A DNA stretch of 64,000 nt from Tequatrovirus NIC06P2. Under the pieces are notes generated by a model. It was given only the letters and a program-made list of their open reading frames with translations. It ran no database searches and was not told the origin of the DNA. Below, piece by piece: positions 52,000-55,942 of this stretch (the stretch's first letter is position 1; each line of letters opens with the position of its first letter). Location of the stretch: sequence record OZ035760.1. One strand, 5' to 3'. Position numbers and translations under genes: made by a program.

Positions 52000-52619
52000 T
52001 CAACTACCTCAATATCATATACTTTAAATGTTCCAAATGAATCGTGTAATTTTTCTTTTGAAATAGAAGTTATTTTATACTTTCCAATTGGAATCATCCA
52101 TTCTTGTTCACGCACAATCATCATTAAGTTATCAGTACGCTCTGAATCTAATCCATCAGTATCTTCATACGTGTACTTAAACTCAGTATTAGGAGAAGAA
52201 AGTATAATATCGCTGATATGGTCAGAATAATTAAAAGCTTTATTAGTTTTTAAGCGAAGTATTATTTTAGTAAAATATTCAGCGTAAGAAAAAGAACATG
52301 CTGTGAGCAAACTAGTAGTAAATGAATCTACTCTATTCGTTGAAAACACTTCTCCAACTTGTAAATCTTTAATAAGTTCTTCTGTTGATTTTGATATACC
52401 ACGATATAACTGATAAGGTGATTTAGTTAAATGCTTTTTAATGATTTTATTCAATTGCCGATGAAGAGCTTCATTCTTTTTGGCTTCCATACATTGCCAA
52501 AGAACTGACTGCTCAAAGTCAGTAAATTTTTCACAGACCTTTTTATACATATCATATTGAAAATCAACGCTTTCAGCTTTTATAGATAACTGTTCAACAT
52601 CTGCAAGATTAATAATCAT
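51996..52619 (-). CDS. modB: ADP-ribosyltransferase ModB (207 aa)
   Basis: ART motifs (LYRGIS ... FSTN ... EQEWMIP); paralogue of modA. Confidence 0.85.
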   Translation of the reverse strand: MIINLADVEQLSIKAESVDFQYDMYKKVCEKFTDFEQSVLWQCMEAKKNEALHRQLNKIIKKHLTKSPYQLYRGISKSTEELIKDLQVGEVFSTNRVDSFTTSLLTACSFSYAEYFTKIILRLKTNKAFNYSDHISDIILSSPNTEFKYTYEDTDGLDSERTDNLMMIVREQEWMIPIGKYKITSISKEKLHDSFGTFKVYDIEVVE

Positions 52620-52675
52620 GATAGCCTCCGTATACTTCAGAAGCTATCATATCATCGTTAGAAAGGAAAGTAAAC
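52620..52675 (-). promoter_or_regulatory. candidate early promoter
   Basis: GTTTAC at 52670-52675 (reverse complement) with A/T-rich -10 upstream of modB. Confidence 0.45.
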
Positions 52676-52686
52676 AACTTTTTGAA

Positions 52687-52869
52687 TTATTTTGCCCAGG
52701 GAGCCCAAGGCGGAGGGTCAAGATGGTATGAAGCTAGTTCTTCTAGAAGAGCATCTGGGGCTTCAATTCCATAATTCTGTAATACTATACGGTACTCTTT
52801 CTTATAATCACTAGAATCATTCTGGATATTCGTAGAATGATTATCTTCTAACATCTCAAATAAATCCAT
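52687..52869 (-). CDS. hypothetical acidic protein (60 aa)
   Basis: Complete ORF. Confidence 0.45.
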   Translation of the reverse strand: MDLFEMLEDNHSTNIQNDSSDYKKEYRIVLQNYGIEAPDALLEELASYHLDPPPWAPWAK

Positions 52870-52877
52870 ATTAATTC

Positions 52878-53348
52878 CTAGCGATAAAAACCAAAATGAC
52901 GATTAGCTTCAGCAATCTTTCTTTCTTCTTCGGACATTCTCCAGCGTAGTCCAACATCAAAATGAGCCCAGACCATTTTAACAAATGCGTGTATGTCTTT
53001 AATATCTTCAATAATGAATGTTTTACTTTTCGAAGGTTGACTCGCTAATTTAACCTTATCATCTTCAAACAGGTCAAAAAGACCATATTCATGAGCTCTT
53101 TTATAGCCTTTAATAGTTAAAGCTTCGGAAGAAGAAAACGGTGAATCAGTATTTTGCAAAATATCTTCAGTATGCTTTATAATTAGAATAATATTTTCTG
53201 GATATTTTCTTTCTTTTATATCTTTAATTAAAAAATCCGGATTTTCTGCTAAAGGAATAATTAATGAGCATTTTTTATCAAGTGTATTTACTGATTTACC
53301 TTCTTTAGACATAAATTCTATTGAATAATGTTTTGCTACTTCAATCAT
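52878..53348 (-). CDS. hypothetical protein (156 aa)
   Basis: Complete ORF. Confidence 0.5.
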
Positions 53349-53501
53349 GGGATTTCCTTTTGCCTACTAATGGACCATCGGGAATTTTGTTTTCCTGGAT
53401 ATATTTCTCATTTTCTTCCATCATTTTACTACCTATTTTAAGAAGCAAATCCATTGCTTCATTTGCTTTAGCTTTAGCCTCTTCTAACGTCATATCTTTG
53501 T

Positions 53502-53705
53502 TCATGATTTATCACCATAGATGTCTCTCATCAATTTAAGCGCTGAGCGTTCTAATTTCTTTTCTTTCTCAGCACTAATCATTGATTTCATCCATTCTTC
53601 CGATTCGTTCTGCATTTCTTTATTTGCTTGTTCAACCCAACCATCATCAATATACATTGAGTTTGGTCTATTGAACCATTCAAGCATTTTCTTCAGAGCT
53701 TTCAT
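53502..53705 (-). CDS. hypothetical protein (67 aa)
   Basis: Complete ORF. Confidence 0.45.
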
Positions 53706-54177
53706 TTGTTTTACCTAAAACAATAGTAGGAGCATCGTCAAATTCATGAATTTTTAGCAAATTTGGATTTAAATTATTCCATAAAGAGGTAATAAAATAT
53801 GATAAAGCATCTTCGTCCACAATTATAAACTTATTTCCTTTATCTATTTCCCAACTATATGCTGAATCATATGAATAAAAAGATAAAGGTTTATCATTAT
53901 ATTTTTCTGTGTTAACATTAATGTATTCTGATTTAGTAAATGCTTCAATTGCTCTAAATGGAATATTTTGTACAGTTTCAATAATACCAATCTTTTTAAG
54001 TTTTATTTCAGCATCTTCTGGAACTGGCATTGAAACGAAATTTTTTACGAGATACATTGGGTCACAATAACCCTTATCAATCATTACAGCTACAGTAATT
54101 GGAACATCTTTAGCAAACGACATGCTATTACTGCTAATATACATTTCAAACAAAATCGCTTCCATAATTTTCCTCAA
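53680..54177 (-). CDS. hypothetical protein (165 aa)
   Basis: Complete ORF. Confidence 0.5.
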
Positions 54178-54515
54178 TCACAAGATGTGGATGAACAACT
54201 AGAATCACAAGAACTTCCACATGAATCGCCCGTCCATACATGAACAGGAACATTAGTATCATATGAATCAGAACTAGACTGTGTATTCTGTGCATTAGAT
54301 GATGTAGTAGGTACTGACCAACGCCAAGGATTTTTATAATATTCTTGGGCTTCTTCATAAGTCATAGTGACTGCTTCTACTGTTCCATCTCCCATATAAA
54401 CATACTCAACTACAGTTAAAGGAAGGTCGTCATTTGAAATAGGAACTACACCTTCCCCAGGAACTGTAGAGAAAAAATCCGTAAAGAAATTTTTAAACCA
54501 ATTAAAGATAAACAT
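54174..54515 (-). CDS. hypothetical protein with Cys/Ser-rich C-terminal tail (113 aa)
   Basis: C-terminus ...[19 protein letters not shown]; hydrophobic aromatic N-terminus. Confidence 0.5.
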
Positions 54516-54721
54516 TACAAAAAGCCTCTTTTGAATTCAACTTGCTTCTCGCCATAATCGTATCGAATCTCTGCATTAAATTCAACAGAACCATCTGCGT
54601 ACATCATAAATGAATGCACAACAACTTCTGTAGACCATGGTTGCAATTCATATTTCTTCATTACGTGTCGTGAAATGATAATATCTAAATCTTCATTCGG
54701 TTTAATCCAACGATTTAACAT
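54515..54721 (-). CDS. hypothetical protein (68 aa)
   Basis: Complete ORF with early promoter upstream. Confidence 0.5.
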   Translation of the reverse strand: MLNRWIKPNEDLDIIISRHVMKKYELQPWSTEVVVHSFMMYADGSVEFNAEIRYDYGEKQVEFKRGFL

Positions 54722-54778
54722 AGCGCTCTCCTCTATAAGATAATTCTATTATACCATACTCATTTTGATATGTAAACC
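54722..54778 (-). promoter_or_regulatory. candidate early promoter (GTTTAC at 54773-54778)
   Basis: Reverse complement GTTTACATATCAAAATGAGTATGGTATAATAG; follows the soc terminator. Confidence 0.5.
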
Positions 54779-54785
54779 ATTTAAA

Positions 54786-54809
54786 TGAAAAAAGGACTCC
54801 CGAAGGAGT
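54786..54809 (-). terminator. intrinsic terminator downstream of soc (same hairpin as at 1203-1226)
   Basis: ggactcc-cgaa-ggagtcc followed by T-run on the minus strand. Confidence 0.75.
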
Positions 54810-54819
54810 CCTTGAATTA

Positions 54820-55056
54820 TTAACCACCTATTTCTGTTGGCGTAAACATTGCAGCATTCTTAGTTTTCCAGTCAGCTGCATCAGAAACTACAGTAGAATA
54901 TGCTGCCTTTTCAGAAGGAAAGGTCTGATAATGAGAATCTGCAATACGATGCTCGTTAGAATAGATTTCAAACGGAACAGAAACTTCCATACCTTTAACT
55001 TCTTTGCCTTCACCTGCTGGATGAGTAAAGGTCTTGATGTTAACGAAACCGCCCAT
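54820..55056 (-). CDS. soc: small outer capsid protein Soc (78 aa)
   Basis: Conserved Soc motifs (YVNIKTF..., HYQTFPSEKAAYSTV) and late promoter upstream. Confidence 0.9.
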   Translation of the reverse strand: MGGFVNIKTFTHPAGEGKEVKGMEVSVPFEIYSNEHRIADSHYQTFPSEKAAYSTVVSDAADWKTKNAAMFTPTEIGG

Positions 55057-55087: not shown

Positions 55088-55095
55088 TATTTATA
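55088..55095 (-). promoter_or_regulatory. late promoter TATAAATA for soc
   Basis: Plus-strand TATTTATA is TATAAATA on the minus strand, about 32 nt upstream of the soc ATG. Confidence 0.7.
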
Positions 55096-55942
55096 AACCA
55101 TTTTCAAATCTCTTTATCATGTTTATATAATTTTCGTCAGGATAACCTAGGCTAACTGCTAACTTTCTAAAATTGACATATTTAGGTTTGTTGTTATTAA
55201 TCCATAATTCTCTAAGCTCTTTTTCATAATTCCATTTAAGTTGATTTCTGCGTGCAATTTTGCTTAAAGTTTTTCCTTTAGCTTTTAAAGCTTTTTCAGA
55301 TGACTGTTTTAATTTTTGAATATTTAAAACTTCTTCTATAGATAAATTATTTTCCTTTGAATATCTTATGCAAAAATCTTTTACTACGGCTATTAGGCAA
55401 TTTTTGTGAGTACCTAAAATTTCTGGATTATTTTCTTCAACTAAAATTCCCCAATATCTTCGATAGCGAGGCATATCCCTTGAAATCCAGTCATTATACC
55501 AAAAATCAAAGTTGGAATACATGAAAGATTTTCTTTTGCGAAGAGTATCTTGGTTTATCCATTGCTCACGTTTATCAGCCCATAACTTAATAGTAAAGTC
55601 TTTCTCTAAGTCAGAAAGCTTCTTAAATTGCGAGCTATTTACTGAGGTCATTCTCTGGAATGCATTCAGCAATCCAAATCTTCCAGTTGAACATAAGAGA
55701 TAGTGAACATATATGTGTTGATATATTGGGAGATATACTCTATTCCAAGGATATGTTTTAAAATCACTGTACTCAGGAAATGCGCATTTAGGAAGTATAT
55801 GATGGGCTTCTGTTTTAGATTTAATGTGAGTGTTTAACTTATACTTATCTATAATTTTTAAATACTCATCTAAAAGTTCCCATTGCGGGAACTTTTCTTT
55901 AAGAGCAGATTTGAAATTAATATCCATTATCTTGACGTTCAA
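55091..55942 (-). CDS. putative free-standing HNH homing endonuclease (283 aa)
   Basis: HNH-like core (TEAHHILPK...N...H) near the N-terminus, basic C-terminal half; occupies the soc-56 spacer and overlaps the 3' end of gene 56. Confidence 0.5.
   Translation of the reverse strand: MNVKIMDINFKSALKEKFPQWELLDEYLKIIDKYKLNTHIKSKTEAHHILPKCAFPEYSDFKTYPWNRVYLPIYQHIYVHYLLCSTGRFGLLNAFQRMTSVNSSQFKKLSDLEKDFTIKLWADKREQWINQDTLRKRKSFMYSNFDFWYNDWISRDMPRYRRYWGILVEENNPEILGTHKNCLIAVVKDFCIRYSKENNLSIEEVLNIQKLKQSSEKALKAKGKTLSKIARRNQLKWNYEKELRELWINNNKPKYVNFRKLAVSLGYPDENYINMIKRFENGL

Follow-up and report, generated by a model that had tools for sequence, protein, structure and literature searches.

The modB-soc interval of Tequatrovirus NIC06P2 as the counterpart of the T4 mrh/modA early region, with a C-terminal Cys-Asp motif characteristic of the Mrh.1 family

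The genes lying between modB and soc in Tequatrovirus NIC06P2 constitute the Tequatrovirus early cassette mrh.2-mrh.1-mrh-srh-modA.4-modA.3-modA.2, and the Cys/Ser-rich tail with which one of their products ends is the hallmark of the Mrh.1 family (DUF7206), a disordered segment of Ser, Asp, Gly and Tyr that closes with S-C-D-S-[GS]-x(3-6)-C-D-COOH. The DNA analysed, referred to here as the window, is a stretch of 64,000 nucleotides from sequence record OZ035760.1. All seven genes are on the minus strand, and their stops and starts overlap or sit close together. An earlier note, made from the letters of the window, had listed six ORFs of 60, 156, 67, 165, 113 and 68 aa in this interval; their strand, coordinates and lengths are confirmed, but modA.4 (54 aa, 53341-53505), which is annotated in T4, T2 and phage vB_Eco_F26 (F26), was overlooked. 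The 165-aa ORF (53680-54177) is in the right frame with the wrong start, the TTG having been chosen mechanically by the ORF listing, whereas T4, T2 and F26 annotate an ATG at 54165 that gives 161 aa and is preceded by GAGGA overlapping the mrh.1 stop codon.

A megablast search with the interval returns 524 phage-record matches, nearly all Tequatrovirus-like, of which the best is F26 (99.3% identical), where the cassette genes are annotated. The names of the matching phages point to E. coli, Shigella, Yersinia, Salmonella and related hosts. Gene-by-gene tables of T2, T4 and F26 are concordant with the cassette, as are the PHROG and Pfam assignments, and the seven proteins are 81-100% identical to their T4 counterparts. 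By sequence, the locus is thus the textbook mrh/modA early region of T4. The description of the ORFs as uncharacterised does not stand, since each is an orthologue of a named T4 gene and both mrh and srh are genetically characterised; homology to T4 proteins is found for every ORF listed, and a known function for part of them. All seven genes are under purifying selection relative to T4 (dN/dS 0-0.34; the ratio is undefined for modA.2, in which a single site differs). The earlier statement that recognisable catalytic motifs are absent holds for the Pfam, NCBIfam and PADLOC profiles, which identify no catalytic domain in any cassette protein, the NCBIfam and PADLOC searches yielding sub-threshold noise only.

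Table 1. Genes, protein segments and putative regulatory signals of the modB-soc interval, in window coordinates.
Feature	Coordinates	Strand	Description
modA.2	52687..52869	-	60 aa; 59/60 identical to T4 ModA.2, 60/60 to T2; phrog_1647 at 2e-31
modA.3	52878..53348	-	156 aa; 148/156 identical to T4; phrog_1234; PF24070 T4_MRH
modA.4	53341..53505	-	54 aa; 54/54 identical to T4 ModA.4; phrog_2681 at 2e-37
srh	53502..53705	-	67 aa; 66/67 identical to T4 Srh; phrog_2441 'decoy of host sigma32' at 1.4e-40
mrh	53680..54165	-	161 aa from ATG 54165; open frame extends to TTG 54177
mrh.1	54174..54515	-	113 aa; Pfam PF23836 DUF7206; 107/113 identical to T4 Mrh.1
Mrh.1 tail, G96-D113	54177..54230	-	18 residues; C103-D104 and C112-D113 family-wide; C99 and C107 in the T4 group only
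Mrh.1 core motif, E37-Y-V-Y-M-G-D-G44	54384..54407	-	Most conserved core motif; turn of predicted beta-hairpin
Mrh.1 N-terminal amphipathic helix, residues 1-15	54471..54515	-	Family consensus M-I-x-W-L-K-x-L-F; AlphaFold helix 3-15
mrh.2	54515..54721	-	68 aa; 67/68 identical to T4, 68/68 to T2; phrog_1873 at 1e-36
Putative early-type sigma-70 promoter	54748..54776	-	TTTACA, 17 nt, TGnTATAAT; 11/12 consensus positions, extended -10
Intrinsic-terminator-like hairpin after soc	54792..54813	-	9-bp stem, 5 G-C pairs, T-run

Mrh.1 is a member of its Pfam family, scoring 102.8 bits (cut-off 25.6) with residues 3-113 aligned to profile positions 1-107 of 107, and it carries all of the family motifs: an N-terminal W-[LF]-K-x-x-F, the EYxYMGDG core, and S-C-D-S...C-D-COOH at the C-terminus. 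T4 Mrh.1 (AAD42613.1) has the same length, the same tail and the same slot between mrh.2 and mrh, and the six substitutions that separate the two proteins leave the tail motif untouched. The motifs are conserved in 57 aligned and 112 scanned full-length members, although members of the family are only 27-60% identical overall. An exhaustive representative search with Mrh.1 gives 12 matches. Three long proteins among these (P0009, P0013 and P0014) were discarded as relatives, as they align through many short repeated stretches only, two of them on a Ser-rich linker. Frameshifted or truncated mrh.1 alleles occur in nature (H81, P0004, P0005 and P0011).

Remote homology searches, as proposed in the earlier note, recovered families and T4 orthologues; neither sequence nor fold comparison gives a solved relative of Mrh.1. 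The AlphaFold model built from the 57-sequence alignment has a pLDDT of 58 and shows a helix at residues 3-15, a hairpin at 34-52 and two short helices (53-61 and 63-66), with the remainder disordered. The EYVYMGDG region has the highest pLDDT in the protein (74-82), and Y40, G42, D43 and G44 are invariant among the 57 sequences. Computed over 11 residues, the hydrophobic moment of the N-terminal helix is about 0.6 in most members, the eight examined spanning 0.41-0.70. A Foldseek comparison of the model with the PDB gives nothing at E ≤ 0.001, as expected for a mostly disordered model, and PDB sequence and profile searches with Mrh.1 and its alignment give nothing below E = 0.3. A literature search for mrh.1, modA.2 and DUF7206 found nothing.

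The protein does end in the 18-residue Cys/Ser-rich tail described previously, although the earlier view of it as out of the ordinary in a phage early protein does not hold: the tail sequence is identical in the Mrh.1 proteins of T4 and T2, and it is a hallmark of DUF7206 across T4-like phages. In each of the 112 full-length homologues the last two residues are C-[D/N], with S-C-D-S-[GS] 5-10 residues before, giving the family pattern ...S-C-D-S-[GS]-x(3-6)-C-[D/N]-COOH. C112 is invariant, and S102, C103, D104, S105 and D113 are each at least 90% conserved. The composition of the tail is less telling. It is the sole cluster of at least four Cys in 18 aa among the 99 ORFs of the window, but 21% of residue shuffles of the window proteome yield at least one such cluster, so that Cys content by itself says little. 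What counts is that the motif has been conserved in evolution, and the tail is a genuine, non-random feature.

That the tail might nonetheless be functionless low-complexity sequence, its Cys content a compositional accident, is suggested by the frequency of such clusters in shuffles, by the predicted disorder of the region, and by the dispensability of the gene and its broken natural alleles. We regard this as highly improbable, because the last residues are the best-conserved part of an otherwise divergent family and the protein end always falls exactly after Cys-Asp/Asn. Moreover, C112 is invariant and C103, D104 and D113 are at least 90% conserved even though distant loci differ in codons (Ser TCN/AGY, Cys TGT/TGC, Asp GAT/GAC), use any of the three stop codons, and continue into unrelated sequence downstream. 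Since the tail codons differ between phages, the constraint acts on the protein. The same differences in codons, stops and downstream sequence led us to reject conservation of the tail through overlap with the mrh ribosome-binding site; an origin by slippage was also rejected, as Tandem Repeats Finder detects no DNA repeat beneath the tail.

The suggestion that the tail binds metal was examined in its simplest form, a self-contained four-Cys site of zinc-ribbon-like or metallothionein-like character within a single Mrh.1 chain. In the window, T4 and T2 the four Cys (99, 103, 107 and 112) are spaced 3-4 residues apart with Asp/Ser flanks, as such a site might have. However, C99 and C107 are replaced by Tyr or Ser in most of the 112 homologues, leaving two Cys, and the conservation of only C103 and C112 argues against a simple four-Cys site. 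AlphaFold gives residues 67-113 no ordered structure, and no zinc-finger or metallothionein family is matched in Pfam or NCBIfam. A four-Cys site is thus quite improbable.

The placement of a Ser/Cys-rich segment right at the C-terminal end, following a conserved N-terminal portion, also recalls ribosomally synthesized precursor peptides, in which a leader precedes a modified core (lanthionine, thiazole/oxazole or similar). The tail gives a sub-threshold match to NCBIfam TIGR04363, the FxLD lanthipeptide precursors (E = 0.025, 14.6 bits), which share a Ser/Cys-rich C-terminal stretch; this score is far under the cut-off of 30, and Mrh.1 is not a member of that family. Neighbouring genes in the window cassette and in five distant loci encode no dehydratase, cyclase, YcaO or radical-SAM domain. 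Known cores do not show an Asp invariably following each Cys, nor a variable Ser/Gly spacer, and Mrh.1 is an early product that a lytic phage makes inside the cell. We consider a precursor role extremely improbable.

Mrh belongs to the T4_MRH family (PF24070; 146.3 bits, cut-off 24.4), also matches phrog_1234, and is identical at 130 of 161 positions to T4 Mrh (81%) and at 150 of 161 to that of T2 (93%). ModA.3 is likewise far over the cut-off (133.1 bits), and the two occupy the places of Mrh and ModA.3 in the T4 gene order; on profile evidence the family is present twice, ModA.3 being a paralogue of Mrh. T4 mrh is annotated as modulating rpoH and as a transcription modulator under heat shock. 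An effect of mrh on T4 late transcription is reported when rpoH is mutated or cells are heat-shocked (42 °C), and recombinant Mrh is reported to assemble into a very large complex (PMC8076793, PMC6070864). We found no literature follow-up to an unpublished cryo-EM structure of Mrh, PDB sequence and profile searches with Mrh and its alignment give nothing below E = 0.3, and the AlphaFold model is unusable (pLDDT 37; 31 sequences, all close relatives, plus ModA.3).

Srh is a postulated decoy of host sigma-32 (T4 annotation; PMC6070864, PMC8076793), and although the window protein is nearly identical to that of T4, the decoy role is a postulate in T4 itself. Residues 23-60 of Srh align with region 4.2 of E. 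coli RpoH (residues 244-279) at 32% identity with a pairwise E of 7e-4, in a single local alignment of 38 residues that is suggestive of a resemblance, though short. The remaining products (ModA.2, ModA.4, Mrh.1 and Mrh.2) are small and conserved and have no assigned function. ModA.2 ends in the conserved motif DPPPWAPWAK, and distant orthologues (loci L004, L005 and L009) belong to Pfam PF26838 (Phage_T4_Y01E) and end in DPPPW(A/T)PW(A/V)K. The modA.4 gene differs from that of T4 by eight synonymous and no non-synonymous changes, and the mrh.2 stop overlaps the mrh.1 start (TAATG).

Among 27 loci surveyed the order soc, mrh.1, modA.2, Mod ADP-ribosyltransferase is kept in 25, and mrh.1 lies between soc and the Mod ADP-ribosyltransferase genes in 26. 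A gene of the MRH family is present within the cassette at 24 loci, and a homologue of mrh.2 is directly upstream of mrh.1 at 18, with a stop/start overlap in nearly all of these. The usual companions of Mrh.1 are Mrh.2, ModA.2 and a gene of the MRH family. In Mosigvirus/Dhakavirus-like loci it is srh, not mrh, that follows mrh.1, and at two loci (L008 and L010) the mrh.1 neighbours are unrelated. The survey overturned the notion that srh, modA.4 and modA.3 are insertions confined to Tequatrovirus.

The cassette is probably transcribed from a putative early promoter just downstream of the soc terminator (Table 1). No other site in the scanned region fits better than this promoter, which is identified by consensus match only; the terminator-like hairpin stands between soc and the cassette. 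In T4, mrh.2 deletions of 35-526 bp are viable and the 39-56 region is non-essential (PMC8262927), and a 'dispensable region' has been described (PMC6070864). The cassette is therefore likely to be a dispensable early accessory module for host takeover and not a set of enzymes.

These features would also suit counter-defence, in which some or all of the seven genes act against specific anti-phage systems and not as modulators of sigma-32 or proteostasis: the genes are early, dispensable, small and accessory, they occupy a conserved spot beside the Mod ADP-ribosyltransferases, and mrh has diverged further from T4 than any other cassette gene (85.6% nucleotide identity, versus 95-99% in its neighbours), as might be expected of a host-interaction gene. 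However, the dN/dS of mrh relative to T4 is 0.34, which gives no sign of positive selection, and PADLOC offers only a marginal match of Mrh.2 to BrxC (E = 0.0066, 12.1 bits) that we treat as chance. A literature search found no link of the cassette genes to defence, and the published genetics indicate rpoH (PMC6070864, PMC8076793). We consider counter-defence unlikely, and we favour a role in host takeover in which, following the T4 genetics, Mrh and Srh would act on sigma-32 (RpoH) dependent transcription.

We tentatively propose, with limited confidence, that Mrh.1 binds a partner and that its terminal Cys-Asp pairs act as ligands of a metal or thiol site. Mrh.1 would be a cytoplasmic, largely disordered adaptor or inhibitor, with the N-terminal amphipathic helix and the EYxYMGDG hairpin docking it onto a partner or onto the membrane surface. 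The two Cys-Asp pairs, one of them at the free C-terminus, could then supply thiolate and carboxylate ligands. With two Cys per chain a tetrahedral metal site cannot form from one chain alone, and the ligands might instead bind a metal ion shared with the partner or with a second copy of Mrh.1. Alternatively, their target could be a reactive site of a host heat-shock or proteostasis protein, in the pathway addressed by the neighbouring genes; the one line of evidence that would connect Mrh.1 to sigma-32 is this gene neighbourhood.

The membrane protease FtsH is inhibited by small proteins with an amphipathic helix, phage lambda CIII and Bacillus SpoVM, and CIII stabilises sigma-32, to which the neighbouring genes mrh and srh are linked. 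Mrh.1 may be likened to these inhibitors in its small size, its phage or accessory nature and the amphipathic helix at one terminus, but they are not known to have a Cys-Asp tail and the analogy is one of possible mechanism only. A more specific and very improbable version of the proposal is that the Cys-Asp tail is a 'warhead' that, placed at the inner membrane by the helix, chelates the catalytic zinc of FtsH or another proteostasis metal or thiol site, tuning sigma-32 stability together with Mrh and Srh. If true, Mrh.1 would represent a new kind of phage-encoded inhibitor, one that depends on its C-terminus and is conserved across T4-like phages.

The outcome of this analysis is mainly a correction, in that the interval is the known T4 mrh/modA early region rather than a new locus. 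Its lasting value is a sharper picture of the orphan family Mrh.1/DUF7206, which has a strictly C-terminal S-C-D...C-D motif, invariant among T4-like genera. Mrh.1 has been a T4 gene without a hypothesis for decades, and an answer would clarify how T4-like phages handle the heat-shock system of their hosts.

The interval between modB and soc is the already known mrh/modA early region of T4. Megablast matches 52600-54830 to 524 phage records, nearly all of them Tequatrovirus-like and the best being Escherichia phage vB_Eco_F26 (99.3%), and T2, T4 and F26 are all annotated with the order soc, mrh.2, mrh.1, mrh, srh, modA.4, modA.3, modA.2, modB. The six ORFs described in the earlier note are all present on the minus strand, together with a seventh that it overlooked, modA.4, both ends of which overlap adjacent genes. 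The note considered the six uncharacterised, a status it set against clear homology of each to a T4 protein of known function; since each is homologous to a named T4 protein that homology exists, with known function confined to mrh and srh, at the genetic level. The premise of six uncharacterised ORFs is partly wrong, as regards both their number and their status. The mrh start annotated in T4, T2 and F26 is an ATG preceded by GAGGA, which overlaps the mrh.1 stop codon.

Features of the mrh/modA region and related loci (window coordinates unless a locus is named)
Feature	Coordinates	Strand	Description	Identity to T4 protein	Basis
modA.2	52687-52869	-	60 aa	59/60	ORF listing, raw sequence
modA.3	52878-53348	-	156 aa	148/156	ORF listing, raw sequence
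modA.4	53341-53505	-	54 aa	54/54	
srh	53502-53705	-	67 aa	66/67	ORF listing, raw sequence
mrh, longest form	53680-54177	-	165 aa, mechanically chosen TTG start		ORF listing, raw sequence
mrh, ATG start at 54165	53680-54165	-	161 aa	130/161	T4, T2, F26 annotation
mrh.1	54174-54515	-	113 aa	107/113	ORF listing, raw sequence
mrh.2	54515-54721	-	68 aa	67/68	ORF listing, raw sequence
Promoter candidate	54776-54748	-	Sigma-70 type; TTTACA, 17 nt, TGnTATAAT; best site in region	
Hairpin after soc	54813-54792	-	Terminator-like		Sequence scan
modB hairpin	52651-52617	-	14-bp stem		
Promoter-like sequence	52674-52646	-	TTTACT, 17 nt, TGnTATGAT		
ModA.2 end motif	52687-52719	-	DPPPW(A/T)PW(A/V)K		Sequence comparison
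Distant modA.2 orthologues with this motif	L004 4908-5108; L005 4764-4955; L009 4892-5101		Phage_T4_Y01E		
soc	54820-55056	-	78 aa	36/83	
Endonuclease-like ORF	55091-55942	-	283 aa		
Soc-GDSL gene	L003 and L004, 2224-3738		504 aa		
T2 modB region (LC348380.1)	L001 899-1520		429-nt CDS and 129-nt ORF		

PHROG and Pfam assignments are consistent with these identities: PF24070 (T4_MRH) is common to ModA.3 and Mrh, Srh matches phrog_2441 ('decoy of host sigma32'), Mrh.1 matches PF23836 (DUF7206), and PF26838 (Phage_T4_Y01E) is present in distant ModA.2 orthologues. ModA.2 and these orthologues share a C-terminal Pro/Trp motif, a second conserved C-terminal short motif in the cassette. Nei-Gojobori counts against T4 give dN/dS values of 0 to 0.34 for the cassette genes with a computable ratio, indicating purifying selection; modA.4 has eight synonymous and no non-synonymous differences, and the ratio for modA.2 is undefined because a single site differs. 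The most diverged gene by far is mrh, with 85.6% nucleotide identity to T4 (dS 0.35, dN 0.12) versus 95-99.5% for its neighbours, and Mrh homologues inside Tequatrovirus are 75-99% identical in protein sequence, which points to allele exchange or more rapid evolution of mrh.

The cassette genes overlap or abut, with TAATG joining mrh.2 and mrh.1 and ATGA-type overlaps later, and the candidate promoter lies 27 nt upstream of mrh.2, just past the post-soc hairpin; we infer a single early transcription unit. The GGAGG and ATG of modB are enclosed in a hairpin whose left arm holds the -10 element of the promoter-like sequence, such that the modB start would be masked in read-through transcripts and not in those from the proximal promoter. 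This arrangement is known for some other T4 genes. The record for T2 splits modB into a shortened CDS and a separate hypothetical ORF, where T4 and the window have a 624-nt gene; modB appears to be disrupted in T2.

On the other side of the cassette, the window Soc (43/86 identical to that of T2) contrasts with the products of the flanking early genes, which are 95-100% identical, and appears to come from a replaced or highly diverged allele of this capsid-decoration gene, the surrounding region being otherwise T4/T2-like. In PHROG, the ORF located between soc and gene 56 hits families of homing endonucleases (1e-33) and HNH endonucleases (4e-10), with no match to a Pfam model; the same site holds the GIY-YIG endonuclease segF in T4, two small ORFs in T2 and a 224-aa endonuclease in F26, and appears to be a hotspot of mobile endonuclease exchange. 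Two loci like Enterobacter phage Entb_45 encode a protein with Soc and GDSL lipase/esterase domains adjoining a normal soc; its Soc domain could serve as an anchor that presents the enzyme on the capsid.

Gene order was compared across 27 loci, 18 of them from IMG/VR and six metagenomic or genomic, in addition to the window, T2 and T4; in 26 of the 27, mrh.1 lies between soc and a Mod ADP-ribosyltransferase gene, with modA.2 also kept in 25 of these 26. An MRH-family gene is within the cassette in 24 loci, and mrh.2 is directly upstream of mrh.1 in 18, nearly always with a stop/start overlap. Mosigvirus/Dhakavirus-like loci have mrh.2, mrh.1, srh, modA.4, modA.3 and modA.2 without a separate mrh; in two outliers (L008 and L010) the neighbours of mrh.1 differ.

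The Cys/Ser-rich 18-residue tail that the earlier note described at the C-terminus of Mrh.1 is present in the window and identical in T4 and T2. No other cluster of at least four Cys within 18 aa occurs in the window, although 21% of proteome shuffles yield such a cluster, so Cys composition alone is weak evidence. Homologues were sought by a word-seeded search, which found close relatives only, an exhaustive representative search, which found distant ones, and then a profile search, giving 134 proteins, nearly all with PF23836 (best 120 of 134). Among the matches listed, the 112 full-length members all terminate in Cys-Asp, or in two cases Cys-Asn, and have an S-C-D-S-[GS] element 5-10 residues before this pair. 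In an alignment of 57 sequences, 27-60% identical to the window protein except for two close relatives, C112 is invariant and conservation reaches at least 90% at S102, C103, D104, S105 and D113; this invariance of the motif disfavours the view of the tail as functionless low complexity. Further conserved blocks are an N-terminal W-[LF]-K-x-x-F helix, P-G-E-G-x-V-P-I and E-Y-x-Y-M-G-D-G-x-x-E-E-V. C99 and C107 are confined to the T4 group, with Tyr or Ser in other homologues, a pattern that disfavours a four-Cys site within a single chain.

Across distant loci the tail codons vary (Ser TCN/AGY, Cys TGT/TGC, Asp GAT/GAC), all three stop codons are used and the downstream sequences are unrelated; therefore it is the peptide, rather than the DNA, that is constrained, and retention of the tail for the next gene's ribosome-binding site is ruled out. 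No DNA tandem repeat was found under the tail. The tail is thus real and conserved, yet already in T4 and covered by a Pfam DUF. One 164-aa homologue (P0003, Escherichia phage 235Ecol030PP) is a mosaic, with an N-terminal half and tail of T4 type and an inserted middle segment of RB69/JS98 type (...EEIIRQPEKAGNVG...IITATAVSSW...); recombination has taken place inside the disordered linker.

An AlphaFold model built with the 57-sequence alignment has a mean pLDDT of 58, with a helix (3-15), a hairpin (34-52, pLDDT 74-82) and short helices (53-61 and 63-66), and predicts residues 67 onwards to be disordered. For the N-terminal helix the hydrophobic moment is ~0.6 in most members (0.41-0.70 across eight examined), and this helix lacks a signal-peptide-like long hydrophobic core because K8 and D13 break it up, so Mrh.1 is probably cytoplasmic with reduced Cys. 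Sequence, profile and fold searches found no relatives in the PDB. Mrh.1 is predicted to be disordered, bears short conserved motifs near its two termini and has Cys-Asp as an obligatory C-terminus. That it is a modified precursor peptide is disfavoured, a sub-threshold FxLD match being its sole support and modifying enzymes being absent nearby. Tentatively, Mrh.1 could be a partner-binding adaptor or inhibitor, whose two Cys-Asp pairs might coordinate a metal jointly with a partner or second chain, or interact with a host protein's reactive site, with a target probably in the heat-shock/proteostasis pathway that the neighbouring genes address. A more specific version, in which the target would be the membrane zinc protease FtsH, takes lambda CIII and SpoVM as analogues and is very improbable. 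It is also unlikely, though less so, that some or all cassette genes are counter-defence genes: PADLOC gives one marginal match, and a literature search found no paper linking them to defence.

Two cassette members are tied genetically to sigma-32. In the T4 record, Mrh is annotated as modulating transcription during heat shock and Srh as a 'postulated decoy of host sigma 32'; of Mrh it adds that it 'allows growth on rpoH mutants'. The literature reports an effect of mrh on late transcription in rpoH mutants and under heat shock (PMC6070864, PMC8076793). A direct comparison of Srh with E. coli RpoH aligns residues 23-60 to RpoH 244-279 in region 4.2 (32% identity, pairwise E = 7e-4), a suggestive match, if a short one. 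Recombinant Mrh is soluble and migrates as a very large complex, and a 3.3 Å cryo-EM structure is mentioned as unpublished (PMC8076793); a sequence search found no deposited Mrh structure and a literature search no follow-up paper. T4 tolerates 35-526 bp deletions around mrh.2 (PMC8262927), and mrh.1 alleles with frameshifts or truncations occur in nature (H81, P0004, P0005 and P0011). The cassette is therefore accessory: conserved, dispensable and probably early.
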